DNA from: a virus | Taxonomy: Duplodnaviria > Heunggongvirae > Uroviricota > Caudoviricetes | Virus record (IMG/VR): IMGVR_UViG_2920292642_000002 | Location: 19,431 to 83,430 of that record | Length of the DNA: 64,000 nucleotides | Direction: 5' to 3' (one strand) | In this document: piece after piece, positions 12,634 to 31,431 of the stretch | How positions within the stretch are numbered: the stretch's first letter is position 1 | How the letters are laid out: each line of letters begins with the position of its first letter | Notes under the pieces: model-generated | Database searches by the model: none | The model's input: the letters and a program-made list of their open reading frames with translations, nothing else | Told to the model about the DNA's origin: nothing | Program-made: the position numbers and the translations under genes

Positions 12634-12635
12634 AG

Positions 12636-12665: not shown

Positions 12666-12667
12666 AT

Positions 12668-12865: not shown

Positions 12866-13299
12866 AAAGACTCCGTGCTGATGTTGAAAAGAAAAAGCCC
12901 GGCTGGAGCCGGGCTTTCTTCCCCTGTTCTGTTTACAGGCCGGGGATGCCCAGTGGGTTACGCCGCGAGGCGGTTGGCCACAGGGAAATTGTCGTTTGCG
13001 ACAGTTTCTAGGTTCGGACGATAACGGTGTACCTCACCGGGTCGCGTGTCCCCTTGCTCACAGCAGTCGATCCTATTTCGCCCCCATCATAACCACACTG
13101 AGCGCTGCCGTCTTGTGGAAGGCGCGGCCGTTGCCAGTGACGCCCACAGGCGTGATATCTAACCCCAAACGCGGGCCAGTGTGGTTATGGTGGAGGCGGC
13201 GGGTTCCGCCCCCGCGTCCTGCATGCAATCCAGTTTCCCGGATTACGACCATGCGACGTACATACTCCGAAGACCGAGGTGCTGTCAAGTGTTTCTTGC

Positions 13300-13599: not shown

Positions 13600-14369
13600 C
13601 AGCCGTCCTCCAGTCCTGCCAAGGTCTCGCGAATCGTGGCGAGGCGCGTCGTGAAACCCAACGGCTCAAGAAACTCCTCGGATTTCCGCAGGTGGGTGAC
13701 GATAGCCTCCTTCGTGATGGCTCCGTCCTTGATCCGCTTGTGGAAGTATTCGGCCGGCGTCAGGTTCTCAAGCGCGTGAGGACCCTTGGCCTGAGCGACG
13801 ATCTGGAATCGCCTGAGCTTGATGTCCGCCTCCGAGGGAGGATGGTGATCGTCGATCCGATCGACCTCGACCATTTCCGGGAAAGCAATGACTTCATTTT
13901 CGTCCGACAGGAACAGCAGGACATTCGGCACCGGTAGGCGTCCGACCGTCACCGTGGGTTGGTGGGAGCCGGAGAGGTTGGCGAACTGCTCGGCGCGGGC
14001 ACGCTTGGTCGTCCACGAGAAGCCTGTGTGGTTGAGTGCAGAGCCTCCGCGATAGACCTTCAGAGGGGCATCGCGCCGCGCCGCCCGCTTGATGAAGTCA
14101 AGCTCCTCGGCACTCATCGCCATGAACCGGGCCGGCGACTGGATGCGCGCCAGAGTCAGCATGTTCCTGATCTCAACTCCATGCAGGAAGAGAGATTCCG
14201 ATTCACGCCAGACCCTGCGGAACAGGGACCAGAACGCCTCATCGGTAAGCTCCTCATGAATATCGTGCAGGGCGGAAACCCGCTCGAATTTGTCGTGCAT
14301 CGTGAAGATGGCACGGACGAGATCGTCCAACATGTTTTTTGCCTCCCCGTAGAGTTTTGATTGACACAA
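13599..14369 (-). CDS. hypothetical protein (256 aa)
   Basis: ORF track; non-shadow composition; weak R/S-T/E pattern (YRGGSA, FSWTT, EMVEVD) noted. Confidence 0.5.
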   Translation of the reverse strand: MCQSKLYGEAKNMLDDLVRAIFTMHDKFERVSALHDIHEELTDEAFWSLFRRVWRESESLFLHGVEIRNMLTLARIQSPARFMAMSAEELDFIKRAARRDAPLKVYRGGSALNHTGFSWTTKRARAEQFANLSGSHQPTVTVGRLPVPNVLLFLSDENEVIAFPEMVEVDRIDDHHPPSEADIKLRRFQIVAQAKGPHALENLTPAEYFHKRIKDGAITKEAIVTHLRKSEEFLEPLGFTTRLATIRETLAGLEDG

Positions 14370-14450
14370 TCGGCAAGGAAATCTATACGGACTGCGATCG
14401 CGACAATCAATAGACTCTGTCGCGTTTTAACAAGGGATAAGTGGGGCAAC

Positions 14451-15680
14451 ATGTCCGATTTCGAGTTTATCGCCCAAGAGGGCAAGATGAGGTCCCATAT
14501 CAAGGCGTGGAACAGGGGCGTCGAGTTCGACGAGGGCACCTATGCCCAACTTAGAAACATCGCCAGCCTGCCATTCATCCACAAGCATGTGGCCGCTATG
14601 CCAGATGCACATGTCGGCATCGGAGCGACGGTCGGTTCGGTCATCGCCACCAAGGGCGCAGTGATCCCGGCAGCGGTCGGAGTCGACCTCGGCTGCGGAA
14701 TGATGGCGTGGCGCATCTCCCTGAAGGAGAGCGATCTGCCCGACTCGCTTGGCCACATCCGCGCCGAGATGGAGCGCGCGACGCCGCACGGTCGCACCAA
14801 CAACGGTGAGAAGGGTGATCGCGGCGCGTGGGATAACGCTCCGACCTCTGCACTCAACCGCTGGAATGGTCTCTTCGATCGTTACGAACAGATCATCGCC
14901 AAGCACCCGAAGGCCAAGAGCTACAACGGCCTCAACCATCTCGGCACGCTCGGCACCGGCAACCACTTCATCGAGCTTTGCGGTGACGAGAATCAGGACC
15001 TCTGGGTCATGCTGCATTCCGGCTCGCGTGGCATCGGCAACAAGATCGGCTCCTACTTCATTGAGCAGGCGAAGAAGGAGATGGAGCGCTACCACGTCAC
15101 CGAGTACCTGCCGAATGCGGACTGCGCCTATCTGGTCGAACACACCGAGCTTTTCCAAGACTATGTCGAGGCGGTTAGCTGGGCTCAGGACTTCGCGTGG
15201 GAGAACCGCAAGCAGATGATGCACCAGACCATTATGGCCCTGCGGAAGGTGCTGCCGCCGTTCGCTGTAACCCAAGAGGCGATCAACTGCCATCACAACT
15301 ACATCTCTCGCGAGCATCATTTCGGCGAGAACGTGATCGTCACGCGCAAGGGCGCTGTCCGGGCGCGCGAAGGTGATCTCGGGATCATCCCCGGCTCCAT
15401 GGCAACCGGCTCCTACATCGTGCGCGGCAAGGGGAATCACGATTCCTTCTGCTCGTGCTCGCATGGTGCCGGCCGGCGCATGAGCCGTGGTCAGGCCTTC
15501 AAGGCGATCAGCCTCGAAGACCACATCAAGGCGACCGAGGGGGTTGAGTGCAGAAAGGATGCCGACGTGATCGACGAGAGCCCGGCAGCCTACAAGGACC
15601 TCGGCGCGGTGCTCGCCGCCCAGTCCGATCTCGTCGAGGTCGTGCACCGGCTGCGGACGCTCGTGAACGTCAAGGGTTGA
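14451..15680 (+). CDS. rtcB: RNA-splicing ligase RtcB (3'-phosphate/5'-OH RNA ligase)
   Basis: VGVDLGCGM, GNHFIELCGDEN, HSGSRGIGNKIG, SCSHGAGRRMSRGQA metal/GTP-binding motifs; start aligned to canonical RtcB N-terminus (MSDFEFIAQEGKMRSHIKAW). Confidence 0.9.
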   Translation: MSDFEFIAQEGKMRSHIKAWNRGVEFDEGTYAQLRNIASLPFIHKHVAAMPDAHVGIGATVGSVIATKGAVIPAAVGVDLGCGMMAWRISLKESDLPDSLGHIRAEMERATPHGRTNNGEKGDRGAWDNAPTSALNRWNGLFDRYEQIIAKHPKAKSYNGLNHLGTLGTGNHFIELCGDENQDLWVMLHSGSRGIGNKIGSYFIEQAKKEMERYHVTEYLPNADCAYLVEHTELFQDYVEAVSWAQDFAWENRKQMMHQTIMALRKVLPPFAVTQEAINCHHNYISREHHFGENVIVTRKGAVRAREGDLGIIPGSMATGSYIVRGKGNHDSFCSCSHGAGRRMSRGQAFKAISLEDHIKATEGVECRKDADVIDESPAAYKDLGAVLAAQSDLVEVVHRLRTLVNVKG

Positions 15681-15686
15681 GTGCAG

Positions 15687-15860
15687 ATGGGCGACCGGCT
15701 GCTCCTTGAGTGGAGCAAGAAAGGCATCTGGTACGGTTCGACAGACCCAAAGTACGTCGAACCGTACCGTGAATGGGCTCTGGAAGCCCTATCCAAAACA
15801 TCCGAGCGCTACGTCTATCTGCACGGCAGGGCTCGGATTTCATTCTACGAGGGATGTTGA
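15687..15860 (+). CDS. hypothetical small protein (57 aa, MGDRLLLEWSKKGIWYG...)
   Basis: manual translation; ATG immediately after GGTTGAGTGCAG junction containing rtcB stop. Confidence 0.4.
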   Translation: MGDRLLLEWSKKGIWYGSTDPKYVEPYREWALEALSKTSERYVYLHGRARISFYEGC

Positions 15861-15865
15861 CGGTA

Positions 15866-16042
15866 ATGGAATCTGTTGTCGTTGAGTTCCCGACTGGGCG
15901 GCGCGAAGTCGCCGCCTATCTCGACACGTCGCGAAGGCGTGCGCTCCAGCTTCCAGTGGTCACGCCAGCACCGATTCCCGGCTATCGCTTCGAGCAGTCG
16001 ATCGCCGGAGACTGGTACGCCTTTGAAACATGGAGGGACTAA
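15866..16042 (+). CDS. hypothetical small protein (MESVVVEFPTGRREVAAYL...)
   Basis: internal Met of ORF 15773..16042; coupled TAATG to next gene. Confidence 0.35.
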   Translation: MESVVVEFPTGRREVAAYLDTSRRRALQLPVVTPAPIPGYRFEQSIAGDWYAFETWRD

Positions 16043-16452
16043 TGTCTGATCCTTCTCCGTGGGCCAACCCGCCTAAGAACGTTCCGGAACCTCGGCGTCC
16101 ACAGGCCTTCGTCGCGATCTCATCAGTCGAATATGACCGGGTCTGTGAGCACCTGATCCGGGTGGCGGCTGGTCTTAGACGCCTTGCCGGTAAGAAGGTC
16201 GCCCTTGGTTTTGGCTGGACCACCATGCCGGCGTTGAAGCTCGACGATAGTCAATTGCGGGAGCGGGTCGTCATCAACAACGACATTCCGCAGCGGTACG
16301 GACGCCTTCTCGACGATAGGGGTGAATGGGCTGAAGCACCCCTTACCAATCTCTTTCCCTCGATCGAGGACAGGTCGAAGGAAGACGATGAGGTAGGTCA
16401 GTGGACCTACTTCTTTGTGGACTGGTTCGAAAGGCCGGCGTGCCATGGGTAG
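16042..16452 (+). CDS. hypothetical protein (about 136 aa, MSDPSPWANPPKN...)
   Basis: ORF 16030..16452 from ATG 16042. Confidence 0.4.
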   Translation: MSDPSPWANPPKNVPEPRRPQAFVAISSVEYDRVCEHLIRVAAGLRRLAGKKVALGFGWTTMPALKLDDSQLRERVVINNDIPQRYGRLLDDRGEWAEAPLTNLFPSIEDRSKEDDEVGQWTYFFVDWFERPACHG

Positions 16453-16606
16453 CGCGGCCGACGACCTGTTCGACGCGGTGCTGCGTGAGCAGGAGATGCG
16501 ACATATCCTGCGCACCGCCTGCCCCTGTCACAATGAGAGCAACTGGTTCCGCAACGACGATGGCGTGATGGAATGCCGTCAATGCGGGGAAATGGTGGAT
16601 GAATAG
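16445..16606 (+). CDS. hypothetical small zinc-ribbon-like protein (CPCHNESNWF...CRQCGEM)
   Basis: ORF 16415..16606 from internal ATG 16445. Confidence 0.35.
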   Translation: MGSAADDLFDAVLREQEMRHILRTACPCHNESNWFRNDDGVMECRQCGEMVDE

Positions 16607-16607
16607 G

Positions 16608-17069
16608 ATGAGTGCAGAGCCTCAATACAAGAACATTCCAACGGTCTGCGTCACCGTCGTGCCGTTGACCACTGACAACAGGTTCAGCGGCATATTGCTG
16701 GTGAAGCGCGGTCTCAAGGACGATTGGCACGGTAAGTTGGCGCTACCGGGCGGCTATCAGGAGTTTGGCGAGACGTGGCAGGAGGCAGCCGCGCGCGAAG
16801 TTCGCGAGGAGACCGGGCACGAGGTCGAGATCGCGAGCAGGCCTTTTGCAGTCATGACGGTTCCGTCCGGCCACAACCTAATTTTCGGCGTGGCTTATCC
16901 GATCCCGTTCGACCAGCATGCCAACTACGAGCAGGTCGAGACGCTGGAGATCATGGCCGGCCGGGAGCCGTTCGAGCTTGCCTTTCCAGCGCACACCCAG
17001 ATTTACAATACGTGCCTGAGATTCCTCCGACAATCGCTGGACCTGAGCCACCTTTTCAGTAAAACTTGA
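16608..17069 (+). CDS. NUDIX hydrolase
   Basis: Nudix box GGYQEFGETWQEAAAREVREETG. Confidence 0.7.
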   Translation: MSAEPQYKNIPTVCVTVVPLTTDNRFSGILLVKRGLKDDWHGKLALPGGYQEFGETWQEAAAREVREETGHEVEIASRPFAVMTVPSGHNLIFGVAYPIPFDQHANYEQVETLEIMAGREPFELAFPAHTQIYNTCLRFLRQSLDLSHLFSKT

Positions 17070-17117
17070 CAGATACGTCCAGAATATCTAACCGAGAACG
17101 TAAATGGGAGTGTACTC

Positions 17118-17285
17118 ATGAACGCCTTCTTCGCCCTCGCCTTCTGGCTCACCATGCTCGCGTCGTGGCTGACGCACTTCTACGTCTCGATCGTCGACGA
17201 CAGGATCGCCCTCCTCTTCCTTGGGACGTTTGTCCCTCCGATCGGCTGGCTGCACGGCCTCGGCGTCTGGGTGGGTCTCTTCTGA
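17118..17285 (+). CDS. small membrane protein (55 aa)
   Basis: manual translation MNAFFALAFWLTMLASWLTHFYVSIVDDRIALLFLGTFVPPIGWLHGLGVWVGLF; GGGAG RBS upstream. Confidence 0.4.
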   Translation: MNAFFALAFWLTMLASWLTHFYVSIVDDRIALLFLGTFVPPIGWLHGLGVWVGLF

Positions 17286-17527
17286 TGGCCCAGCCGGTCG
17301 CGTTTGCCGGTCAGACGGACATCCTCGGCGCACCAAAGGGGAGTGCCGGCGTCAAGCCCCTCCCCTGCTATATGGACGGATCACAGGTGATCTCGGCGTG
17401 GCAACTTTCGCCTGAGGAGATCGAGGAGGTCCTGCGCACGGGCATCGTCTGGTGCTTCGTCATGAGCAGCAACCAGCCGCCAGTTTACCTTACCGGCACG
17501 AACCCGTTTCCCAAGACACAAAACTGA
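17285..17527 (+). CDS. hypothetical protein (80 aa)
   Basis: ATG overlapping previous stop (TGATG); tail of ORF 17066..17527. Confidence 0.4.
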   Translation: MAQPVAFAGQTDILGAPKGSAGVKPLPCYMDGSQVISAWQLSPEEIEEVLRTGIVWCFVMSSNQPPVYLTGTNPFPKTQN

Positions 17528-17561
17528 CGACAATGAGCCTCTGTCATGCTATCTCTTTGAC

Positions 17562-17768
17562 ATGACAGAGATTCAGAAGCTTGAGCGCGCAATCAACCAA
17601 GTCCTCGCCGAGGCAAAGCCCGGTGACGTATTCCTGTGTTGCGCGCAGCACGTAGGCGACTGCCCGCACTATGCCGAGCAGACCTGCGACTGTCCCATGA
17701 TCACGATCACCGAGGAGACGACGGCCGCTGAGGTCGTCGCCCTCTATCAGCAGCAGCCGAAGCACTGA
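17562..17768 (+). CDS. hypothetical Cys-rich small protein (68 aa)
   Basis: ORF track. Confidence 0.4.
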   Translation: MTEIQKLERAINQVLAEAKPGDVFLCCAQHVGDCPHYAEQTCDCPMITITEETTAAEVVALYQQQPKH

Positions 17769-18041
17769 TCATTCCGTCGTCGTGAACTTGGTGCGGTGCT
17801 TGACACAGAACGGGCACTGCCATCCGTACTTGCGCGTTCTCTTGTAGCCACGCGCTCTCGCTTCCTCGGCCGATCGCTTCATCATCCAGTCCGGCCGCTG
17901 CCCAGTCCTGAACAGGAGACCTGAGTTTTCCGCGTCTTGCGTGGCGCACGACATCATCCCATAGGGCGGAGCCTTGCGCCAAATACTGTCCGGCACATCC
18001 TCAGCCGGCGTGTCGCAGTGTATTTCAATCCAGACAGCCAT
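17769..18041 (-). CDS. hypothetical protein with C-terminal zinc-ribbon (CPFCVKH)
   Basis: internal Met (MAVWIEIHCDT) of ORF 17769..18287; upstream remainder is high-GC shadow. Confidence 0.4.
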   Translation of the reverse strand: MAVWIEIHCDTPAEDVPDSIWRKAPPYGMMSCATQDAENSGLLFRTGQRPDWMMKRSAEEARARGYKRTRKYGWQCPFCVKHRTKFTTTE

Positions 18042-23042: not shown

Positions 23043-23117
23043 GACGTGGTGGCGGAGTGGCTTACGCGCCGGATTGCAACCCCGGTCACGCCGGTTCAAT
23101 TCCGGCTCACGTCTCCA
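23043..23117 (+). tRNA. tRNA-Cys(GCA), CCA encoded, U73 discriminator
   Basis: manual cloverleaf: acceptor GACGTGG/TCACGTC, T-arm GCCGG-TTCAATT-CCGGC, anticodon loop TTGCAAC; A31-C39 mismatch. Confidence 0.6.
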
Positions 23118-23131
23118 ACTCCCCTGAGCAA

Positions 23132-23356
23132 ATGCGGCATTTCAAGATCATCACTCAAGACGACTGCAAATACTGTGACCGCGCGAAGGCGCTGATTCGG
23201 GAGATGGGTGATACCTTCTCCGAGATCAATCTTTCGACATTCACTGAGGAGGCGCGGGGCGCGTTCAAGAAACGCTACGGGACCGTTCCGCAGGTCTTCC
23301 TCGAAACGGTGCGCATTGGCGGCTCCGACGATCTTGCGGCATGGTACGCTACTTAG
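23132..23356 (+). CDS. glutaredoxin-like protein (NrdH/Grx family, 74 aa)
   Basis: CKYC active site and GTVPQVF...GG motif. Confidence 0.7.
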   Translation: MRHFKIITQDDCKYCDRAKALIREMGDTFSEINLSTFTEEARGAFKKRYGTVPQVFLETVRIGGSDDLAAWYAT

Positions 23357-23816
23357 CCGACTCCTTGACGTGGTAGGCGTCGCCTTCCTTGTCCTTGACC
23401 AGTATTCCCCTCTTGGCCATCTCGGACAGAGCGGCCCATACCGTCTGCTTGCGGATACCATCACCGAGCGCTGCGATGATCTCGGCGCTCGTCATCGGAC
23501 GTTCCTGACCAATTAATATGGTTGTGATTTGCTGCTTTATCGGCGGTTTTTTCTCGATAACGGCCGACATGAAATCCTTTGCGGCGCGCTTCGTAGATGG
23601 TGGGTTTACCGGGCCATTCGATTTTCGAGTCTTGGGAGCGGCGTGCGATTCCGTTTGTCGTTGCTGGTCGGCTTTCTTGAAGGAGTGGTAGGCCCCGGCC
23701 TCGATCGGCTCTCGGAGAGATTCGATCGTGTTTCTGACATCCTCCAATTTGTTTATTCTGATTTTTAATGCTTCGATCTCGCGGTCGATCTGGGCGCACA
23801 TCGCATCGATGTCCAT
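23349..23816 (-). CDS. hypothetical protein with C-terminal winged-helix DNA-binding domain
   Basis: TSAEIIAALGDGIRKQTVWAALSEMAKRGILV resembles wHTH regulators. Confidence 0.45.
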   Translation of the reverse strand: MDIDAMCAQIDREIEALKIRINKLEDVRNTIESLREPIEAGAYHSFKKADQQRQTESHAAPKTRKSNGPVNPPSTKRAAKDFMSAVIEKKPPIKQQITTILIGQERPMTSAEIIAALGDGIRKQTVWAALSEMAKRGILVKDKEGDAYHVKESAK

Positions 23817-24099
23817 TAACGACTCCCTGTCCCCTTGGTTTGTTGTTGCTGCGGTTCTCCGCAGACGATTACCTCACCCAAGGTCAGACCTTATCTGAAA
23901 TATGGCATCATGGGTATAACTCGTGCGTTAAGGAGGCTGGAAATTAACGGACGAAATCATAAGTCATTATGTCGCATAATTCGTCGGCTTTTAAGCCGGG
24001 TGGGTGCACCATCTAGGGTGCTTTCTGAAGGCGGGCAAGCGACTCATACGTGTACGCATGAAAAAGCCCCGACCGCTATCGGCCGGGGCTCTGTACTCA

Positions 24100-24417
24100 T
24101 CACATTTTGTCGAAATCGACAGCGTCATTGACCGGGATTAGAAGCTCTTCGAGATCGAGCATCACGTCCTCGTACTTCTTGATGAAGGCCTTGGTCACCT
24201 GCACGTCCGGGAGCGCGACGCTGTTGGGCTGGGCGTAGAGGGTGCCGAGCCCATCGACGTAAGCATCCTTGTTGACCTGCCTGACGCGGAGGGTCGTGTC
24301 ACCCTTCGGGCGCTCATGCTTGAACCAGTTCCAGAATGCCTTGTCGACATCCTCGGCCTTGCCCCACGAATTTCCTCCGACCACGATAAAGTGGTTGAGC
24401 GGCTGTTGCTCACTCAT
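24100..24417 (-). CDS. hypothetical protein (105 aa)
   Basis: ORF track; followed by hairpin plus U-tract at 24059-24092. Confidence 0.5.
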   Translation of the reverse strand: MSEQQPLNHFIVVGGNSWGKAEDVDKAFWNWFKHERPKGDTTLRVRQVNKDAYVDGLGTLYAQPNSVALPDVQVTKAFIKKYEDVMLDLEELLIPVNDAVDFDKM

Positions 24418-25106
24418 GTTGACACTCCTATAAGGTTTTCAAAGAACATTCCGCCTCATTGGCAGCATCTATATCATAGCATATCTGGTTGATATTGCAA
24501 CAACTTTGTTCTTTGTAAGAATACTTGCGAGACAAGACTAGGTTGAGTGCAGACTAACTTTGAATACTACTGCAAACACGAAAAAGGCCCGGTGGGAGAC
24601 GGGCCTTGATGGTTAGGGGTTGAGTGCAGAGACTAACATCGCAGGAATGATGACGATCTGGAGGAGAGCGGCTGGTCTTGATCCGCAGACCTCTCCCGAG
24701 GTCCCAACCGTTTTCGAGACGGTGCCGGCGCGCCTGTCCGGTTCACTCTCCATAACTGGTCCGAGGGGAGAGAATTTGCACTCCCACAGTCTAAGACGGC
24801 CGCTTTACAGGCGGTTAGGCTCACTCGTGCCCAGCCCTCGGATGCGCGATCGCGTATAAAGCGAGTTTATCCGGAATCGCGTATAAATGGCGGAAGGCGG
24901 TGGCCCTGATCCACTAACCCGTGCGGGTCTCATCCGTTTAGCAAACGGAGCCGGCCCGAGCCGGTTCACCTTCCAGAAATGAAATGGAGGAGACGGAGAG
25001 CAGGCCAGTATCGCTCGCGCTCGATTACGGGCGCGCCGGCCTGTCTCCTAGCCCTCTTACTCGCGCCATCCTATCGAGCCAACAGGACCGCTTCGGCAGG
25101 GCATCT

Positions 25107-25192
25107 TGGCGGAGAGCGGAGAACTCGAATCCCACACCTTGCGGTGCGCTTCGCCTTCCAAGCGGGCCGGGAACCTATCCCGTTCACTCTCC
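25107..25192 (-). tRNA. tRNA-Ser(GGA), class II
   Basis: manual fold: acceptor GGAGAGU/GCUCUCC, long variable arm, loop UUGGAAG, T-loop TTCGAGT, CCA encoded. Confidence 0.5.
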
Positions 25193-25196
25193 ATAC

Positions 25197-25272
25197 TGGT
25201 CCCAGCGGCAGGATTCGAACCTGCGACCTCTCCCTTATGAGGGGAAAGCACTACCGCCGTGCTCCACTGGGT
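25197..25272 (-). tRNA. tRNA-Met(CAT) (elongator or Ile-lysidine type)
   Basis: manual fold: T-arm GCAGG-TTCGAAT-CCTGC, anticodon loop CTCATAA, CCA encoded. Confidence 0.6.
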
Positions 25273-25748
25273 TAATCGCGTCGGACCACCTGAATGGGGC
25301 CGTCCGACAGAATGTCGTGCTTGATGCAGACCTCGACGGCGCGCTCGGCCGTCGCGCCCATCTCCAGAGCACCCACGGCGATCATGTCGCCGGAGCCGAA
25401 GACGTGCCATTCGCTCTCGACCTCGTAAGGTGGATCGTCCCCCTCGAAGCGGATGCAGACGCCGTCCGGCTTGATCACGAAGCCGGTGCAGTTGTCGTCC
25501 TTCCCAGTCGGCTCGATCCGAGGACTGCTGTACTCCAGATTCTGGAGGAACTTGGGGAAGTTGTCCGAGCGGCACCAGCGGATGAACTTGGCGACGTAGG
25601 GCGCTTCGCCGGTCCCACCGACGAGGTAGGCTTCACCATCGACATCGACGCGAGCGATCTTCTCGGCGTGGCCGAGCACGTTCCAGTTGCGTCGGATCAA
25701 CTGAGAATCCGACGCAAGGACACCGTCACGATAGACGAGGACAGTCAT
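25272..25748 (-). CDS. HslV-like N-terminal-nucleophile peptidase (proteasome beta-subunit family)
   Basis: MTVLVYRDG N-terminus (Thr2) and GSGDMIAVGALEMGATAERAVEV similar to HslV. Confidence 0.5.
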   Translation of the reverse strand: MTVLVYRDGVLASDSQLIRRNWNVLGHAEKIARVDVDGEAYLVGGTGEAPYVAKFIRWCRSDNFPKFLQNLEYSSPRIEPTGKDDNCTGFVIKPDGVCIRFEGDDPPYEVESEWHVFGSGDMIAVGALEMGATAERAVEVCIKHDILSDGPIQVVRRD

Positions 25749-26131
25749 CAGTAGCGCGCCGCGCCGAGCGAACGGGAAGGCGCAGCGCCCAGACCGGTCT
25801 CGGTGGACTTCTTGCCCTTCTTCTTGTTGTCGTCGAAGAACTTGTCGAGCGACTGGACCTGCACCGCCTTGACGATCAGGCGAACGATCGCGACCGGGTA
25901 GGTATTGGCCGAGGCCGAAACATCTCCGAAAGTGGCGATCGACGACTCGGTGTCGCCATTGCCGATCTTCCCGCCGACATCCCCCTTTCCGAGGATCGAA
26001 TTGACGGCCGCAGCCGCCTTGGTCACGTCGGTGAGGTCGGTGCCGAGGAGATTGTTCGCTGCTGCGAGCGCCGCGTCCTCGTCGTTGAGCTTGCTGATTT
26101 CGACCAGCTTCTCGAAGTCGTTTCTGTCCAT
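25748..26131 (-). CDS. hypothetical protein (127 aa)
   Basis: ORF track. Confidence 0.45.
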   Translation of the reverse strand: MDRNDFEKLVEISKLNDEDAALAAANNLLGTDLTDVTKAAAAVNSILGKGDVGGKIGNGDTESSIATFGDVSASANTYPVAIVRLIVKAVQVQSLDKFFDDNKKKGKKSTETGLGAAPSRSLGAARY

Positions 26132-26203
26132 GCCCGGAACTCCCTTGTGGTTAGGCTTGCGGGATTCCGTTTAGGGGTTCTTTACGGCAGTGTCAAGAAA
26201 AAC

Positions 26204-26277
26204 TGGATGCCCTGCCACGACTCGAACGTGGACTCATCGCTTCAAAGGCGCGCGTCCTACCTTTAGACGACAGGGCA
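26204..26277 (-). tRNA. tRNA-Gln(TTG)-like; weak anticodon stem
   Basis: manual fold: acceptor TGCCCTG/CAGGGCA, T-arm CCACG-TTCGAGT-CGTGG, loop CTTTGAA, CCA encoded. Confidence 0.5.
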
Positions 26278-26287
26278 GGAGTGAGGG

Positions 26288-26360
26288 TGGCTCGGCAGGT
26301 ACGGGTCGAACGTACATCGGCTGATTCAGAGTCAGCGTGCTTACCATTAGCGACTGCCGA
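26288..26360 (-). tRNA. tRNA-Gln(CTG)
   Basis: manual fold: anticodon arm GCTGA-CTCTGAA-TCAGC, T-arm GTACG-TTCGACC-CGTAC, CCA encoded. Confidence 0.6.
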
Positions 26361-26366
26361 ATAAAC

Positions 26367-26443
26367 TGGTGCCAAGGGGAAGTTTCGAGCTTCCGACCTC
26401 CGGGGTTTCAATCCGGCGCTCTAACCATCTGAGCTACCAAGGC
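26367..26443 (-). tRNA. tRNA-Phe(GAA)-like; U-U mismatches in acceptor stem
   Basis: manual fold: D-arm GCTC-AGATGGTTA-GAGC, loop TTGAAAC, T-loop CTCGAAA, CCA encoded. Confidence 0.5.
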
Positions 26444-26451
26444 ATAAAAAT

Positions 26452-26537
26452 TGGCTCGCGAGGGAGGGATCGAACCTCCGCCCCCTTCGGGGTCCACCGG
26501 TTAACAGCCGGGAACATTACCACTCTGCCACTCGCAA
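26452..26537 (-). tRNA. class II (long variable arm) tRNA with anticodon loop CTGTTAA (reads GTT/Asn-like; one base from Tyr GTA)
   Basis: manual fold: variable arm CCCCGAAGGGGG, T-arm GGAGG-TTCGATC-CCTCC, acceptor starts UU. Confidence 0.45.
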
Positions 26538-26546
26538 TCATAACAC

Positions 26547-26634
26547 TGGAGAACCGGGTGGGGATCGAACCCACGGTGGGCTTTCGCCATCGGATTAAAA
26601 GTCCGCGCCCTTCGACCAACTTGGATACCGGTTC
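26547..26634 (-). tRNA. class II scaffold tRNA with Lys anticodon TTT
   Basis: manual fold 88 nt: acceptor GAACCGG/CCGGTTC, variable arm GGCGAAAGCC, loop CTTTTAA, T-arm GTGGG-TTCGATC-CCCAC. Confidence 0.45.
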
Positions 26635-26640
26635 ACGATC

Positions 26641-26715
26641 TGGAGCCCTGCTCGGGGACCGCACCCGCTTCTACCGCTTACAAGGCGGCTGCTTCACTCT
26701 CAAAGCTTTCAGGGC
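26641..26715 (-). tRNA. tRNA-Thr(TGT)-like; non-canonical T-loop TGCGGTC
   Basis: manual fold: D-arm GCTT-TGAGAGTG-AAGC, anticodon arm GCCGC-CTTGTAA-GCGGT. Confidence 0.5.
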
Positions 26716-26721
26716 ATTGTC

Positions 26722-26796
26722 TGGAGCCTCGGTCGGGAACTGCACCCGCTTCTGACCGGTACGAACGGCCTGCTTCACTCGCAAAGCTTTCGAGGC
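26722..26796 (-). tRNA. tRNA-Thr(CGT)-like; non-canonical T-loop TGCAGTT
   Basis: paralog of previous unit; anticodon arm GGCCG-TTCGTAC-CGGTC. Confidence 0.5.
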
Positions 26797-26807
26797 ATAA
26801 TAAATAA

Positions 26808-26895
26808 TGGAGTACCCGGCTGGATTCGAACCAGCGGTGTGCTTTCGCAGGCGGATTAAGAGTCCGACGCCATCGACCAACTCGGCCACGGGTAC
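26808..26895 (-). tRNA. class II scaffold tRNA with Lys anticodon CTT
   Basis: manual fold 88 nt: D-arm GCC-GAGTTGGTCGAT-GGC (Ser-like), loop CTCTTAA, variable arm TGCGAAAGCA, T-arm GCTGG-TTCGAAT-CCAGC. Confidence 0.45.
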
Positions 26896-26901
26896 ATTAG
26901 C

Positions 26902-26975
26902 TGGAGCCGACACGTGGAATTGAACCACGGCTCCGTCCTTACCACGGACGGCGTCTACCACTGACATATATCGGC
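26902..26975 (-). tRNA. tRNA-Thr(GGT)
   Basis: manual fold: anticodon arm CGTCC-GTGGTAA-GGACG, T-arm CGTGG-TTCAATT-CCACG. Confidence 0.6.
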
Positions 26976-27060
26976 AAAATTTAACTGTCTCGATTAATCG
27001 AGCCGCAACTTGTCCTTGCTACAACCGCTGTGCTGATCACAACACCACGAGGCAACAGAC

Positions 27061-27243
27061 ATGATGAAACTGCTGAAGCGCTTCCAGAGCGATGAGTCTG
27101 GAGCAACTGCAATCGAATACGGCCTGATCGCTGCTTTGATCGCGCTGGCGATCGTCGTCGGCGCTGGCGCACTCGGCGAGAACCTGAACGCCAAGTTTCA
27201 GGCAATCAGTGACCAGTTGGCGGGTACGCCGGAGGGAGAATAG
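27061..27243 (+). CDS. flp: Flp/Fap-family type IVb (Tad) pilin precursor (60 aa)
   Basis: prepilin signature KRFQSDESGATAIEYGLIAALIALAIVV matching the Flp motif; own terminator follows. Confidence 0.75.
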   Translation: MMKLLKRFQSDESGATAIEYGLIAALIALAIVVGAGALGENLNAKFQAISDQLAGTPEGE

Positions 27244-27282
27244 AGTTCCTTGTCCGCGTTACAGCAACGACAAGCAACTGAC

Positions 27283-27310
27283 CGCCCTCCGGGGCGGTTT
27301 TTTTTTTTTG
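27283..27310 (+). terminator. rho-independent terminator of flp-like gene
   Basis: CCGCCCTCCGGGGCGG hairpin followed by T11. Confidence 0.65.
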
Positions 27311-27386
27311 GTGGAGACGGTGAGAATCGAACTCACAACAGCCTGCTTGCAAGGCGGGCTCGCTAACCCTTAGAACATGCGTCCCC
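27309..27386 (-). tRNA. tRNA-like, probably Ala(TGC); D-arm unclear
   Basis: T-arm GTGAG-TTCGATT-CTCAC, acceptor GGGGACG/CGTCTCC, loop CTTGCAA. Confidence 0.4.
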
Positions 27387-27563
27387 AAACTCTGAAAAAT
27401 GATCCGGCAGGCGGGCGAGTGTCCCCGCGTCATCTCCCCGGCTAGACAGCACCGAGGTTTTGCAGCCACGCCTTGTCTAAGGGCGGGTCGCTATGTCCGG
27501 AAGGTCACGTTATTCCACGCCAGACCATCCGCTGCTCGTCGCGTTCTGAGCTACTGCCGAAAC

Positions 27564-27640
27564 TGGACCTTCCGGCTGGGATCGAACCAGCGCCCTCCAG
27601 CTTCGGAGGCCGGCGCTCTTGTCCGCTGAGCTACGGAAGG
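27564..27640 (-). tRNA. tRNA-Arg(CCG)
   Basis: manual fold: anticodon arm CCGGC-CTCCGAA-GCTGG? with T-arm GCTGG-TTCGATC-CCAGC, acceptor CCTTCCG/CGGAAGG. Confidence 0.55.
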
Positions 27641-27643
27641 AAT

Positions 27644-27718
27644 TGGAGCGGGTAGCGAGGGTCGAACTCGCGCCTCTAGGCTGGCAACCTAGTGCTCTAC
27701 CAACTGAGCTATACCTGC
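27644..27718 (-). tRNA. tRNA-Gly(GCC)
   Basis: manual fold: anticodon arm CTAGG-TTGCCAG-CCTAG, D-arm GCTC-AGTTGGTA-GAGC, T-arm GCGAG-TTCGACC-CTCGC. Confidence 0.6.
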
Positions 27719-27905
27719 AATTTCGCGGGGTGGGGCTCAGGTCATCACTCCTGTCCCCTGAGCGGGTGATGATCCGGTTTGGGGCCGGTCCCTCTCCCCC
27801 TGCTCGGAGAGCCCGAAGGCTCAATCCTTGGAAACTCTCGACAGGGGTCACCTGTCGCTAGGCAAGGCTCTGAAGGTTGACGAGACCTTCGCCCTTGCGT
27901 GCCTA

Positions 27906-27983
27906 TGGCCTCCCCGGAGAGATTCGAACTCCCGACACGGGAGGTAGAAGCTCCCTGCTCTAGGTCCACTGAGCTACGGAGAG
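27906..27983 (-). tRNA. tRNA-Arg(TCT)
   Basis: manual fold: anticodon arm GGGAG-CTTCTAC-CTCCC, T-arm GGGAG-TTCGAAT-CTCTC. Confidence 0.55.
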
Positions 27984-28431
27984 GAGATCGCTTTTGGAGG
28001 GAGGCCAGCAGGCCATCGTTAGATGGAGTGTCAACACAACGGAGTCGCAAGACTTGCCGAAGCTGCCGACCTCCCGCCAAAGGCGATCTAGGTGCCGAAA
28101 GCGTGAGACTACCGCTTTCGATGACGACCTTCCCGCATTATCCGACGCCTTGCGAGCGTGGTTCTCGGGATGTCCACGCCGAGCATATTGCTATGTCTCG
28201 ACGTATTCGTCAATGCCGCCTTTTTTAGCGCGTGGCGTTTCGCGCGTCGCTGCGTGCTATTCGGCGTCTCGTCGACCGTGAGCCTTGCGGGCTCTTCGCG
28301 GCTGCTACACCGCTACGATCTCTTCCTCACCGACACCCTCCAGCTTGCGACCTTCAGGTGACCCAGTTCCCCGCAGGGCTGGGCATTAGGCATCTTTCAC
28401 ACGCAACCGGGACAGGCTTTGCGTTTTGTTA

Positions 28432-28506
28432 TCGTGAGGCCGGATTTGAACCGGCGACCGATGGCTTAGAGGGCCATTGCGCTACCAACTGCGCTACTCG
28501 CAACCC
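28432..28506 (-). tRNA. tRNA-like (anticodon loop CCTCTAA, TCT with C33; no encoded CCA) - possible pseudo-tRNA
   Basis: T-arm GCCGG-TTCAAAT-CCGGC, D-arm GCGC-AGTTGGTA-GCGC, acceptor with mismatch. Confidence 0.35.
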
Positions 28507-29061
28507 ACCGAGACGTGCTGCCCCAGTTGCTCCAAGCCCTTTTGGGACCCAGAATACAACACGCCTGCTGCTACCTTTCGCGCTGCTAACGCTACTCGAT
28601 CATGCTTCGAGATCACGGGTCATTTCAGCCCGAGACCTTGCCACATTGCCAGACGCCCTCGGCCGCTAAGCCTCGAACCTTCTGACTACCCTTCATCATC
28701 GGCCATCGATCAGTTTGCGTGCCGGGCGCGCTTTGCGAGCGCTTGAGGGCCACCATCGGCTACCCTCTTATCCAACCTTGCGGGTCGGACCCTGCCTGAT
28801 CTTCGGGCCTAGCCCACCTTCCGGTAAGCCGGGTGTCCCCGTGACTGGGCTTGCATGGCTGGACGCGGTTACCCGCGTGGAGGTTTATGGGAAACCCTCC
28901 TTTGGGCCGGTTGCCCGGCTTACCCTGACGACGCCATGCCGCCAAACTCTGCTCCGGTTCTCGTCGCCGATCGCCGTCGCCTTGTTGTCCTCTAACTACT
29001 TCACGACTGCGCCGCCCGTCAAGCATTAATTTGCAATCGTGTTAAGATTTTTTCGACATAC

Positions 29062-29141
29062 TGGAGCGCACGGCAGGGGTCGAACCTGCATCTTCCTCCA
29101 TTACCTTACTCTCGGTTCGTAGCCGAGGGGGTTACGTGCGC
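29062..29141 (-). tRNA. tRNA-Arg(ACG)-like with aberrant architecture (no recognisable D-arm, 21-nt insertion after anticodon arm)
   Basis: perfect acceptor GCGCACG/CGTGCGC, anticodon arm CTCGG-CTACGAA-CCGAG identical to E. coli tRNA-Arg ACG, T-arm GCAGG-TTCGACC-CCTGC. Confidence 0.4.
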
Positions 29142-29146
29142 ATAAA

Positions 29147-29222
29147 TGGCGAGCCATAAGGGAGTCGAACCCTCCTTCTCCGATCGACAGTCGGAGCCCT
29201 TCACCACGACGGGAAATGGCCC
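29147..29222 (-). tRNA. tRNA-Asp(GTC)
   Basis: manual fold: anticodon arm TCCGA-CTGTCGA-TCGGA, T-arm GAGGG-TTCGACT-CCCTT, CCA encoded. Confidence 0.6.
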
Positions 29223-29230
29223 ATTGAAAA

Positions 29231-29305
29231 TGGAACTGGGAGCCCGGCTCGAACGGGCGATTCCGGGGACACAACCCGGCCGGTTACCTCTACCGTCATC
29301 CCAGC
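29231..29305 (-). tRNA. tRNA-His(GTG)
   Basis: manual fold: anticodon arm CCGGG-TTGTGTC-CCCGG, T-arm GCCCG-TTCGAGC-CGGGC. Confidence 0.6.
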
Positions 29306-29313
29306 ATAGTGTT

Positions 29314-29388
29314 TGGAGCGGACTGCCGGGATCGAACCGGCCTTGGGAGATTGGAAGCCTCTTAACTCACCGAGAGCAAGCCCGCATG
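29314..29388 (-). tRNA. tRNA-like, probably Gly(TCC); short D-arm
   Basis: T-arm GCCGG-TTCGATC-CCGGC, acceptor GCGGGCT/AGTCCGC, loop CTTCCAA. Confidence 0.4.
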
Positions 29389-29400
29389 TCTGGTACGCCT

Positions 29401-29482
29401 AGCAGGACTTGAACCTGCACGCCGAAGCACGGGCATCTCAGTCCCGCGTGTCTACCTTTCCACCATAGGCGCATGTTTGTTT
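29401..29482 (-). tRNA. tRNA-Leu(GAG), class II
   Basis: loop CTGAGAT, variable hairpin TGCTTCGGCGT, T-arm GCAGG-TTCAAGT-CCTGC. Confidence 0.5.
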
Positions 29483-29621
29483 GGCGGGGCCGAACACCTG
29501 TCGACCCGATCCGGACGCGATCCCGGACCCTGCACGATTACCCTCTCGCCGATCGCGCGGCCGTTCATGACCGGCCTTTGTTCTCGGGCGATTTTGATGA
29601 AGAGAGTCGCCGTCGCCAATC

Positions 29622-29704
29622 TGGTGTCCGAGGGGAGACTTGAACTCCCACGCCGAAGCTCTGCGGTCTGAGCGCAGTGCGTCTTCCGATTCCGCCACTC
29701 GGAC
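29622..29704 (-). tRNA. tRNA-Leu(CAG), class II
   Basis: anticodon arm CTGCG-CTCAGAC-CGCAG, variable AGCTTCGGCGT, T-arm GGGAG-TTCAAGT-CTCCC. Confidence 0.6.
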
Positions 29705-29710
29705 ATGTCT

Positions 29711-29820
29711 GGTGGAGTGTGACCGGATTTTTACCGGAGCCCATAGGGACAGGTGTACGGCCTGTTCGGGATAGGCAGTCCCGCTCGCAGACCTCTAGCG
29801 GTCCGCTTAATCACAACTCC
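29711..29820 (-). ncRNA. unresolved 110-nt tRNA-like RNA (acceptor-like ends GGAGTTGTG...CACACTCCACCA, multiple internal hairpins; no canonical T-loop)
   Basis: encoded CCA tail and terminal helix but atypical internal structure. Confidence 0.3.
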
Positions 29821-29825
29821 ATAGA

Positions 29826-29904
29826 TGGTGCCTCGCCCCGGATTCGAACCGGGAGGATGTCGCCGGGTTTGAGCCGACCGCGTCTTCCGTTCCGCCAGCA
29901 AGGC
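29826..29904 (-). tRNA. tRNA-Leu(CAA)
   Basis: anticodon arm GTCGG-CTCAAAC-CCGGC, T-arm CCCGG-TTCGAAT-CCGGG. Confidence 0.55.
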
Positions 29905-29960
29905 ATTGATACGTTTAGAGGTATAGAGCGCGCGGCTCTATACGTCTAAAGGTATCAGAT

Positions 29961-30035
29961 CGTGGCAAAGGCTGAGAGATTCGAACTCCCGCCGCAGGGT
30001 TTTGGAGACCCGCATGCTACCGCTACAACAAGCCG
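29961..30035 (-). tRNA. tRNA-Trp(CCA)-like; two mismatches in acceptor stem
   Basis: anticodon loop CTCCAAA as in E. coli tRNA-Trp, T-arm GGGAG-TTCGAAT-CTCTC. Confidence 0.45.
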
Positions 30036-30556
30036 ATCCACGAGCCCCGGCCGGACGGATTCCCGGCCGGGGTTTCTGATGTCATCATTCCTACGATGTC
30101 AAAGAACGGGACCCTAACTAAGGTCCAAATGCAAGAAGGCCCCGGAGATTTCTCGCCGGGGCCTTCTGATCGATCCGAGGATGGTACTGTTAGAATACAG
30201 TACCTCCGTCGCCAGAAGACCCCATGATACCGAACAGATTGGTATCAAGCAGACGCAAGGAGGCGCGGCGCGACTGCGCCGTCCCACTCGTCATTTGATG
30301 CCAATACTGCTGTTTCACAGCGGTCTTCCTTGTTCACGTCCCTCAGGAGAGCGGATATCCGCTGGTCGACTCCGAGGGCTCATTCCGAAATTCTGTTGCG
30401 GTCCCCATACGGTGAACCTGAGAGCGGCGTCAGCCAAGCTCAGCGCGAATGATGAACAATCCTGAGACGTTTGTCAAGCAAGAAAATCATCCGTCTCAAG
30501 AAAAAGTTTACATCGGAAAAGGTTGACGATCGAGTCACGAGGGCTAGATGTCGGGC

Positions 30557-30676
30557 TGTTACGAAGTCGGAGCATGGTGCTCTGATCATTTTTGAGAGGG
30601 AGCAATCTCAAGAGTGAAAGTGGACTCTTCCCAGACTTGACCATGAGTCTAGCCCGCTTCGGCGGGCTTCTTTTTT
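30557..30676 (+). ncRNA. candidate small RNA (promoter-like TTGACG-N17-TAGATG upstream, strong terminator at 3' end)
   Basis: no credible ORF; hairpin GCCCGCTTCGGCGGGC followed by TTCTTTTTT at 30653-30676. Confidence 0.25.
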
Positions 30677-30679
30677 GGA

Positions 30680-30754
30680 TGGCAGCCCATGACGGTTTCG
30701 ATCCGTCTTCTCCTGATTGAGAATCAGGTGTCCTATCCACTAGACGAATGGGCC
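30680..30754 (-). tRNA. tRNA-Glu(CTC); T-loop ATCGAAA (A54)
   Basis: anticodon arm CCTGA-TTCTCAA-TCAGG, D-arm GTC-TAGTGGATAG-GAC, CCA encoded. Confidence 0.55.
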
Positions 30755-30758
30755 AAAT

Positions 30759-30837
30759 TGGTCGGGCGGACGGGGCTCGAACCCGCATCGCAACGCTTGA
30801 AAGGCGCGCCACCTAGTCCAGTTTAGAAGGACCGCCC
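30759..30837 (-). tRNA. tRNA-Glu(TTC)-like; weak anticodon stem
   Basis: perfect acceptor CGGGCGG/CCGCCCG, loop CTTTCAA, T-arm GCGGG-TTCGAGC-CCCGT. Confidence 0.5.
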
Positions 30838-30914
30838 GTGGTCCTCGACCGTGGTTTCGATCCACGTGCCTCCGGCGTGTCGTGCCGGCGCTCTCCCGAG
30901 TGAGCTAGTCGAGG
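30838..30914 (-). tRNA. tRNA-Val(GAC)-like with C33 (loop ACGACAC); abuts previous tRNA
   Basis: anticodon stem CCGGC/GCCGG, T-arm CGTGG-ATCGAAA-CCACG, acceptor CCTCGAC/GTCGAGG. Confidence 0.45.
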
Positions 30915-30915
30915 T

Positions 30916-30991
30916 TGGTTGACCCTGCCGGTTTCGATCCGGCTGCCTCCTGTGTGTAAGACAGGCGCTCTCCCGAGTGAGCTAAGGGTCT
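30916..30991 (-). tRNA. tRNA-Val(TAC); 1-72 mismatch
   Basis: anticodon arm CCTGT-CTTACAC-ACAGG, T-arm GCCGG-ATCGAAA-CCGGC. Confidence 0.55.
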
Positions 30992-30995
30992 GAAC

Positions 30996-31069
30996 TGGTT
31001 GTCCCACTGAGAATCGAACTCAGATCAACCGCTTATCAAGCGGACGCTCTACCGTTGAGCTATGGGACG
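30996..31069 (-). tRNA. tRNA-Ile(GAT); C1-A72 mismatch
   Basis: loop TTGATAA, D-arm GCTC-AACGGTA-GAGC, T-arm CTGAG-TTCGATT-CTCAG. Confidence 0.55.
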
Positions 31070-31110
31070 ACACCGGGCCGAGGCTTGCGCCCCGACCCGA
31101 TGGGGCTTGT

Positions 31111-31185
31111 TGGTCTGGGTGCGGAGTTCCGCCCTCCGGCATCCGGCTTCCAAGGCCGGTACTCTTCTGCACGAGCTTCACCCAG
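31111..31185 (-). tRNA. tRNA-Pro(TGG)-like with non-canonical D- and T-loops
   Basis: perfect acceptor CTGGGTG/CACCCAG, anticodon arm CCGGC-CTTGGAA-GCCGG, T-loop GGCGGAA. Confidence 0.4.
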
Positions 31186-31195
31186 TTATCAGGCA

Positions 31196-31240
31196 AAAAA
31201 GAAGGCCCGGTTTTCACCGGGCCTTTGAAGTTGCCAACAG
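31196..31240. terminator. bidirectional hairpin terminator
   Basis: GGCCCGGTTTTCACCGGGCC flanked by AAAAAAGAA and TTTGAAG. Confidence 0.5.
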
Positions 31241-31352
31241 AACTCTTGATTGGTTCAGTCGCGCAATACCTTCCGGCCCGATTCCTCGGTCGGTTCAATG
31301 ATCTCCACGACGGGGACGATCAGGTTGCGCACTGGTGTTCTCCTAACGAAAT

Positions 31353-31431
31353 TGGTTGCGGCGGCTGGATTTGAACCAGCGATCTTCTGGTTATGAACCA
31401 AACGAGATTGACCGGGCTTCTCTACACCGCA
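31353..31431 (-). tRNA. tRNA-Met(CAT) (second CAU tRNA; Met/Ile2 unresolved)
   Basis: loop TTCATAA, D-arm GAGA-AGCCCGGTCAA-TCTC, T-arm GCTGG-TTCAAAT-CCAGC, CCA encoded. Confidence 0.5.

Follow-up and report, generated by a model that had tools for sequence, protein, structure and literature searches.

The 64,000-nucleotide (nt) stretch of viral DNA analysed here (positions 19,431 to 83,430 of IMG/VR record IMGVR_UViG_2920292642_000002; hereafter, the window) carries a gene for the RNA ligase RtcB at the head of a train of nine plus-strand genes, which runs from rtcB to a small open reading frame (ORF), o68, with stop and start codons overlapping at several junctions (Table 1). We propose, with slightly better than even confidence, that during infection this RtcB would reseal tRNAs cut so as to leave cyclic phosphates, that the small ORFs and the NUDIX hydrolase gene behind it are cargo, and that the NUDIX protein is linked to nicotinamide adenine dinucleotide (NAD) metabolism. 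Coordinates throughout are positions in the window, and the boundaries of the small ORFs were refined by reading the junctions in the sequence.

The presence of an rtcB gene at 14451, already proposed in a first-pass annotation of this DNA, is well borne out. Residues 33-409 of the protein match PF01139 over the whole profile (1-426 of 426; E 4.3e-122, 408.8 bits against a cutoff of 27), phrog_1075 is matched at E 1.3e-141, and RtcB of Escherichia coli K-12 (b3421; 408 aa, against 409 in the window) aligns over its full length with 55% identity and 466 bits. Because that alignment begins at residue 3 against residue 2, the ATG at 14451 is the correct start. Residues D79, C82, H172, H189, H282 and H338 align with D75, C78, H168, H185, H281 and H337 of the E. 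coli enzyme, and with D95, C98, H203, H234, H329 and H404 of the P. horikoshii enzyme. From established biochemistry we take these to be the two-metal site (Asp, Cys and three His) and the nucleophilic histidine, in an HGAGR motif, that is guanylylated. Against the 466 bits for E. coli RtcB, archaeal or human enzymes score about 94-118 bits. The PrfH-linked RtcB2 clade is not matched (TIGR03073, 118 bits against a cutoff of 271.8), and no release-factor-like gene is a neighbour. Judged by these alignments, the product is an RtcB of the E. coli type whose catalytic residues are all present, and the same chemistry would be expected of it.

E. coli RtcB, in the presence of GTP and Mn2+, becomes guanylylated on its histidine and passes GMP to an RNA 3'-phosphate, which is joined to a 5'-OH; cyclic phosphates are opened first, and the enzyme functions without archease or any other accessory protein. 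By analogy, the window RtcB would be guanylylated on His338 using GTP and Mn2+, would transfer GMP to a 3'-phosphate end after opening any 2',3'-cyclic phosphate, and would join the activated 3' end to a 5'-OH end with no archease or separate healing enzyme. The first-pass annotation had noted that no archease motif was visible, and our Pfam scan agrees with it: only the RtcB and NUDIX families were matched among the train products, and no archease family was matched in the ten genes flanking rtcB, the remaining window not having been scanned exhaustively. This absence is uninformative, because the window enzyme is of the E. coli type, which works without archease. Gene order is a point of difference: in E. 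coli, rtcA, rtcB and rtcR lie together, whereas here rtcB heads a train of small ORFs and neither the rtcA cyclase nor the rtcR regulator is matched among its neighbours.

The RNAs repaired would be tRNAs cut by metal-independent host ribonucleases, perhaps including tRNAs and transfer-messenger RNA (tmRNA) encoded by the phage. Suitable 2',3'-cyclic-phosphate and 5'-OH ends would be left, for instance, by anticodon nucleases of the HEPN type (PrrC/RloC kind), by colicin-like tRNases and by MazF-like toxins. Such repair would complement the window's array of 26 tRNA genes, whose products would replace depleted tRNAs. A related logic is known from phage T4, in which Pnkp and Rnl1 heal and seal tRNA-Lys cut by PrrC, with 2',3'-cyclic-phosphate and 5'-OH ends (PMC10264068, PMC12409363). 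The presumed common principle is that the phage reverses cleavage in the anticodon loop; unlike T4, the window would do so with one GTP-dependent 3'-phosphate ligase, from another enzyme family and without any kinase-phosphatase step. The window genes that we examined included no homologue of Pnkp or Rnl.

Phage RtcB has been described as one of two ligase classes that supplement phage tRNAs, and as acting on ends that bear a 3'-phosphate or a 2',3'-cyclic phosphate and are left by metal-independent RNases (PMC7824862). In this respect the first-pass suggestion that RtcB reseals host-cut tRNAs can be retained, in that an intact RtcB in a tRNA-rich phage fits an accepted inference (PMC7824862). 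The parts of it that we abandon are the module partners, discussed below, and the choice of PARIS as a challenge system. The PARIS nuclease AriB is a two-metal Toprim enzyme that leaves 3'-OH and 5'-phosphate ends (PMC12409363); because RtcB joins a 3'-phosphate or 2',3'-cyclic phosphate to a 5'-OH, it cannot mend what this and other metal-dependent nucleases cut, and PARIS is a poor case against which to try it. RtcB is expected to be ineffective against PARIS-type nucleases, and HEPN-type and Toprim-type systems are to be kept apart.

Of 50,697 phage records, 682 contain a homologue of RtcB, most of them from large, tRNA-rich groups, and the same clade is widespread in bacterial genomes. For comparison we assembled 142 other RtcB loci (62 from phages and 80 from bacterial genomes, numbered with the prefix L), which were searched by tblastn with every product of the train. 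At 16 of the 62 phage loci there are tRNA genes within 8 kb of RtcB. The tightest linkage observed is in a 145-kb contig, L032 (IMGVR_UViG_3300020383_000006), where rtcB at 8001-9191 lies inside an array of 22 tRNAs (5695-13945), the nearest tRNA genes being 56 nt before and 6 nt after it; rtcB abuts tRNAs in L019, L051-L054 and L060 as well.

By its gene content the window is part of a siphophage genome of the phiCbK/Lacusarx/Cp1R7A-A1 kind, with genes for a family A DNA polymerase, an SNF2 helicase and an intein-containing large terminase. Its closest relative is Mesorhizobium phage Cp1R7A-A1 (131 kb), whose RtcB, gp134, is 86.8% identical; the RtcBs of Lacusarx, vB_EliS-L02 and phiCbK-like phages, likewise in phrog_1075, are 58-63% identical. 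Synteny with Cp1R7A-A1 takes in a 1249-aa primase-like protein, the tmRNA, rtcB, NAMPT, NadM-Nudix, a SpoT-like HD gene, tRNA-Cys and the tRNA array.

The train runs beyond 17069, where the first-pass annotation had ended the operon, and gains o55, o80 and o68; downstream of o68 the genes are convergent, on the minus strand. Its junctions include four overlaps, and the remaining gaps measure 5 to 48 nt. A terminator scan found no plus-strand terminator-like site inside 14451-17768, and Rfam (E <= 0.1, 12600-18100) places no known RNA family within the train. From this layout rtcB through o68 are predicted to be co-transcribed and translationally coupled. The candidate promoter was spotted by eye and with a looser pattern; a strict scan for sigma-70 promoter and terminator consensus found nothing significant in the operon, and the site is not conserved in Cp1R7A-A1. 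Across the 64 kb, TTGACA-N16-18-TAT has just two matches, one before rtcB and one before the tmRNA, where 0.41 are expected; at least two sites appeared in 6 of 100 shuffled sequences, so that the finding of two is suggestive and not significant.

Table 1. Genes of the rtcB train, with RNA genes and other features of the window (positions in the window)
Feature	Position	Strand	Remarks
rtcB	14451-15680	+	409 aa; first gene of the train; PF01139
o57	15687-15860	+	small ORF; start 7 nt past rtcB stop
o58	15866-16042	+	small ORF; Cp1R7A-A1 counterpart gp132
o136	16042-16452	+	ORFan by database search; start overlaps o58 stop (TAATG)
o53	16445-16606	+	small Cys-rich ORF (CxC...CxxC); overlaps both neighbours; ATGGGTAG overlap with o136
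NUDIX	16599 (or ATG at 16608)-17069	+	156 aa or 153 aa; ATGAATAG overlap with o53; PF00293
o55	17118-17285	+	small hydrophobic protein; phrog_7319; Cp1R7A-A1 gp130
o80	17285-17527	+	small ORF; TGATG overlap with o55; Cp1R7A-A1 gp129, also in L027
o68	17562-17768	+	final gene of the train; Cp1R7A-A1 gp128
Candidate sigma-70-type promoter of the rtcB train	14361..14389	+	TTGACA, 17 nt, TATACG
tmRNA, permuted (two-piece), alphaproteobacterial type	12958..13269	-	tag ANDNFPVANRLAA; RF04321 101.6 bits (gathering 47); RF01849 89.1 bits
NAMPT	19870-21288	-	with NadM, NARP2-type NAD+ reconstitution pair
NadM (NMN adenylyltransferase/Nudix)	21291-22304	-	with NAMPT, NARP2-type NAD+ reconstitution pair
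HD_4	22393-22998	-	SpoT/RelA-type
Array of 26 tRNA genes	23043..31431	tRNA-Cys +, others -	ARAGORN, Rfam; candidate substrates of, or back-up for, RtcB repair
tRNA-Asn(GUU)	26452-26537	-	86-88 nt (range of the three); extra variable arm
tRNA-Lys(UUU)	26547-26634	-	as above
tRNA-Lys(CUU)	26808-26895	-	as above
GOLLD RNA	28100-28566	-	RF02032 205 bits (gathering 150), full length; inside the array; encloses tRNA-Arg(UCU) 28430-28504

The genes behind rtcB are far less widely shared than rtcB itself. No match to o57, o136 or o53 was found at any of the 142 loci, the RtcB region of Cp1R7A-A1 included, and o58 matches Cp1R7A-A1 alone (gp132, about 45% identity). In that phage the region directly downstream of rtcB differs: an unrelated gene, gp133 (DUF7220), takes the place of o57, and another, gp131, that of o136, o53 and NUDIX. 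The only tblastn match of the NUDIX protein was the Nudix domain of the NadM gene of Cp1R7A-A1. A search of the 142 loci with a Nudix-box pattern turned up no further Nudix ORF standing alone within 8-10 kb of RtcB, the sole boxes nearby being those of this NadM gene and of a 392-aa ORF of L027, each ~6 kb from RtcB. Neither o57 nor o58 has a Pfam or PHROG match, and o53 matches no family. For o136, a search of 5.8 billion clusters returned only itself (Pseudaminobacter KEU06_08935), and a full scan by HMMER against 1.84 billion representatives returned itself and one spurious match to a repeat protein; by these searches it is an ORFan. For each small ORF of the train, no frame scores higher in codon usage than the annotated one, and the scores are 0.21 for o57, -0.01 for o58 and 0.05 for o136, where typical genes of the phage reach 0.2-0.55; the coding statistics of o58 and o136 are thus weak, well below those of typical phage genes. 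Relative to the nearest relative, o57, o58, o136, o53 and the NUDIX gene are probably variable, lineage-specific cargo and not cofactors of RtcB.

These comparisons bear directly on two ideas of the first-pass annotation, namely that the small ORFs might be specificity or accessory factors of RtcB, and that RtcB, the small ORFs, NUDIX and HD genes might form an RNA-repair module. In its fullest form, RtcB, the four small ORFs and NUDIX, perhaps with the HD proteins, would be a single counter-defence machine, in which the small proteins act as specificity or turnover factors and NUDIX processes RNA ends or caps. The shared strand and overlapping coding regions, which imply co-transcription and translational coupling, are in keeping with such a machine, as are the retention of o58 beside rtcB in Cp1R7A-A1 and the presence, among the nearest characterised relatives of the NUDIX family, of NudC, which acts on NAD and NAD-capped RNA. 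We nevertheless hold it to be highly improbable. Four of its supposed parts (o57, o136, o53 and NUDIX) have no counterpart beside RtcB at the 142 loci, even where the enzyme is 87% identical, and one of them, o136, is an apparent ORFan with weak coding statistics; the nearest NUDIX homologues travel without RtcB; and E. coli-type RtcB is established to require no accessory protein. The HD genes fit no better. One is SpoT/RelA-type and its small HD_4 protein is likely to be an alarmone hydrolase; the other, at 4455-5177, is YfbR-like, a 5'-deoxynucleotidase. They read as alarmone and deoxynucleoside monophosphate enzymes, and the first-pass proposal that they belong with RNA repair is dropped together with the module.

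Two further candidates for RtcB partners were tried and rejected. The first, o238m (18494-19210, phrog_6452), has homologues in 113 phage records, many from groups outside the listed RtcB hits; a homologue comes directly after RtcB in L041 and lies near it in L027, and in Lacusarx and vB_EliS-L02 the distance to rtcB is 20-30 kb. The second was any universal neighbour: in an all-against-all clustering of the ORFs of 63 RtcB loci, the clusters besides RtcB itself mirror single lineages. One of these, cluster 11 (14 of the 63 loci), has a KxDG-type motif, PKIDGIR, and is read as a putative ATP-dependent ligase.

That the train includes a NUDIX hydrolase, as first annotated, holds up well. The protein matches PF00293 at 50.3 bits (cutoff 21.1), its Nudix box is intact (G52-x5-E58-x7-R66-E67-V-x-E70-E71-x-G73-H74, encoded at 16752-16820), and its AlphaFold2 (AF2) model, with a pLDDT of 89.9, matches many Nudix structures in Foldseek at probability 1.0. 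It appears to be a stand-alone, active-looking pyrophosphatase of nucleoside diphosphates linked to another moiety (NDP-X). Its two nearest homologues are metagenomic (62-64% identity) and have no zinc ribbon; the sole one with examinable context, P0004, occurs in phage-like contigs from which RtcB is absent. Homologues at a greater distance (36-48% identity, ~165 aa) carry an N-terminal zinc ribbon of the NADH-pyrophosphatase type (PF09297), as in the 3cng-like Zn-ribbon-Nudix proteins, whereas the window protein begins after the position of the ribbon. NudC has both a zinc ribbon and an N-terminal domain, and the window protein has neither. We considered whether o53 could be the ribbon, split off, and found no support for this: o53 is not detectably related to it (hhalign against the ribbon of the Zn-ribbon-Nudix family, probability 4%), and the gene upstream of the nearest NUDIX homologue encodes no ribbon.

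As to what the NUDIX protein acts on, our preferred guess, held with modest confidence, is a molecule of the NAD or ADP-ribose type. We prefer it because the neighbours include NAMPT and NadM-Nudix, which make up the NARP2 pair, and a SLOG-like protein. The best solved relatives of the family profile in the PDB are 3cng and the NADH pyrophosphatase NudC. According to a survey, the genes of phages for Nudix and SLOG proteins and for NAD salvage cluster with genes for host manipulation and RNA repair (PMC9503650). A different assignment would make the protein an RppH/NudC-like pyrophosphohydrolase or decapping enzyme of RNA 5' ends, promoting host mRNA decay, or else a MutT-like sanitiser of the nucleotide pool, in either case independent of both RtcB and NAD metabolism. 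Matches by sequence and fold in the PDB do include BdRppH, NudC, MutT-type and NUDT15 enzymes, and there are weak NCBIfam matches to MutT and to YtkD (RNA pyrophosphohydrolase). Every NCBIfam match is far below its equivalog cutoff, as the MutT 8-oxo-dGTPase model shows (TIGR00586, 30.2 bits against 97.9); the fold matches are spread evenly over Nudix subfamilies (CDP-Chase, 3cng, RppH, NudC and MutT-like); and the zinc ribbon of NudC is absent. We consider this assignment unlikely. For the NUDIX gene, a link to the NAD+/ADP-ribose genes nearby is more plausible than one to RNA ligation.

The position of rtcB with respect to the RNA genes deserves separate consideration. The first-pass annotation placed the RtcB operon close to the tRNA array, and it is indeed in the same genome region; it is not in the same transcription unit, since the nearest tRNA gene, tRNA-Cys, is 6 kb past the NUDIX stop and the main array lies on the other strand at a distance of 8-14 kb. 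The RNA gene nearest to rtcB is the two-piece tmRNA, 1.2 kb upstream, which ARAGORN missed and whose own promoter-like TTGACA-N-TAT site is at 13288-13262. It aligns to the tmRNAs of Cp1R7A-A1 and vB_EliS-L02, and these too are near rtcB; all three of the cultured relatives inspected have a tmRNA close to their RtcB gene.

It could therefore be asked whether the ligase serves the phage's own RNAs, maturing or maintaining the two-piece tmRNA, the tRNA array or GOLLD after endonucleolytic processing. The recurrent proximity of permuted tmRNA and rtcB in three phages speaks for this, as do the paired promoter-like sites, the only two in the window, before the tmRNA and rtcB, and the embedding of rtcB in the tRNA arrays of several phage contigs. 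Its substrates are harder to find. Among the 26 tRNAs there is no intron and no split gene, the long ones owing their length to extra variable arms, and two-piece tmRNAs are established to work unligated. Most phage RtcB loci have no RNA gene nearby, and the clade is widespread in bacterial genomes. A role in maturing the phage's own RNAs thus appears quite unlikely, and we continue to favour the repair of nuclease-cut tRNAs.

Within the array, the GOLLD RNA has a parallel in Cp1R7A-A1 (L148, 10210-10672), which likewise encloses a tRNA. The tRNA-Lys and tRNA-Asn genes listed in Table 1 are unusual as well: their extra arm is a stem of 3-5 bp capped by a GNRA tetraloop, and its pairs covary (GGC/GCC, TGC/GCA, CCC/GGG, GGAC/GTCC). 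Such long Lys or Asn tRNAs are present in Cp1R7A-A1, RcXuper, Xanthomonas phage X1, CcrColossus, phiKZ (Asn, 89 nt) and Lacusarx as well. To our knowledge, bacterial tRNAs with a variable arm of this kind are only those for Leu, Ser and Tyr, and a literature search found no description of extra-arm phage Lys/Asn tRNAs. The arm may serve to evade nucleases that target tRNAs. One could go further and see the RtcB train as one arm of a programme against nucleases that attack the tRNAs of AAN codons, with RtcB repair, nuclease-evading tRNA-Lys and tRNA-Asn, and small proteins and NUDIX that adapt to the nucleases of the local host; we regard this extension as very unlikely. A gene for an HslV-family peptidase (25272-25748, minus strand) is found within the array, and an SPFH/Band-7 gene (31563-32414, minus strand) flanks it; in vB_EliS-L02, a gene annotated 'proteasome subunit' adjoins the tmRNA.

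Another possibility concerns the beneficiary. Three proteins of the window match, with 100% identity, proteins that Pseudaminobacter sp. 19-2017 encodes on a contig of 391,276 bp (KEU06_08920 and KEU06_08935 among them), an occurrence that could reflect a prophage, an episome or a join made in assembly. If the phage were resident, its RtcB might shield bacterial tRNAs or rRNA from ribotoxins of competitors, such as colicin tRNases or those of contact-dependent inhibition (CDI), or from endogenous toxin-antitoxin RNases. Besides the shared contig, a tyrosine recombinase gene (218 aa, 8147-8803) and the host-type promoter-like site before rtcB would suit a resident phage. Against residence, Cp1R7A-A1, Lacusarx and the phiCbK-like phages have been grouped as tRNA-rich, presumably virulent siphophages of ~130 kb with large terminal repeats (PMC9437464); rtcB is in a replication and host-takeover region, beside DNA polymerase, helicase and primase genes; and the window contains no integration junction. 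We attach only a low probability to a benefit for the bacterium and keep to the view that RtcB acts during infection.

Several points weigh against the interpretation that we favour. At 46 of the 62 phage loci RtcB has no tRNA within 8 kb, and the higher tRNA density at phage loci (8.4 per 100 kb, against 2.7 at bacterial-genome loci) is a comparison between two kinds of RtcB locus, not with random loci. We know of no anticodon nuclease in this host. Because the phage DNA comes from a bacterial assembly, in a contig of 391 kb, a prophage, or a role of benefit to the host, is possible. The transcription unit, the promoter and an early timing of the rtcB train are predictions. With respect to the cargo, the tight translational coupling of NUDIX and rtcB could mean that the two function together in this lineage alone. 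The substrate of NUDIX, finally, is not assignable from NCBIfam, where the protein is below every equivalog cutoff (NF001299, NAD(+) diphosphatase, 19.3 against 158 bits), or from the PDB profile search, AF2 or Foldseek.

The window thus represents a further tRNA-rich alphaproteobacterial phage with an rtcB gene, in a class that already has many members, and tRNA repair by phage RtcB is already in the literature; our search there turned up no phage RtcB that had been tested functionally. Annotation of the downstream NUDIX and small ORFs as RtcB cofactors is not warranted. Cp1R7A-A1 on Mesorhizobium loti, with its 87%-identical rtcB, is a tractable system for asking whether phage RtcB counters tRNases that leave cyclic phosphates. 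The more unusual features of the window are its phage-borne two-piece tmRNA, the tRNA-enclosing GOLLD in the array and the tRNA-Lys/Asn with GNRA-capped arms that recur in distant phages.

A few neighbouring genes are noted here in their own right. Homologues of the NAMPT, NadM and HD_4 genes lie within 8 kb of RtcB in the unrelated phage contigs L024, L027, L031, L033 and L047. The SLOG-like protein mentioned above (18025-18510, minus strand; 161 aa; phrog_289) has a weak YAcAr/SLOG-like match (PF10686, E 3e-5, below the cutoff) and is near RtcB in the unrelated IMG/VR contigs L023 and L029 also. Divergent from rtcB, at 13599-14333 on the minus strand, is a gene for a 244-aa protein of phrog_4776 that is conserved in Cp1R7A-A1. 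Pfam searches with eight members and a PDB profile search found nothing that would confirm an ADP-ribosyltransferase, and the AF2 model has a pLDDT of only 45.6; the invariant motifs common to the eight homologues (KVYRG, NxTGFSWTT and ExE..PE) are reminiscent of the R-S-E triad of those enzymes. In the large terminase (46566-49379, plus strand; 937 aa), Intein_splicing and Hom_end_hint domains are situated between Terminase_6N and Terminase_6C, in what is apparently an intein.

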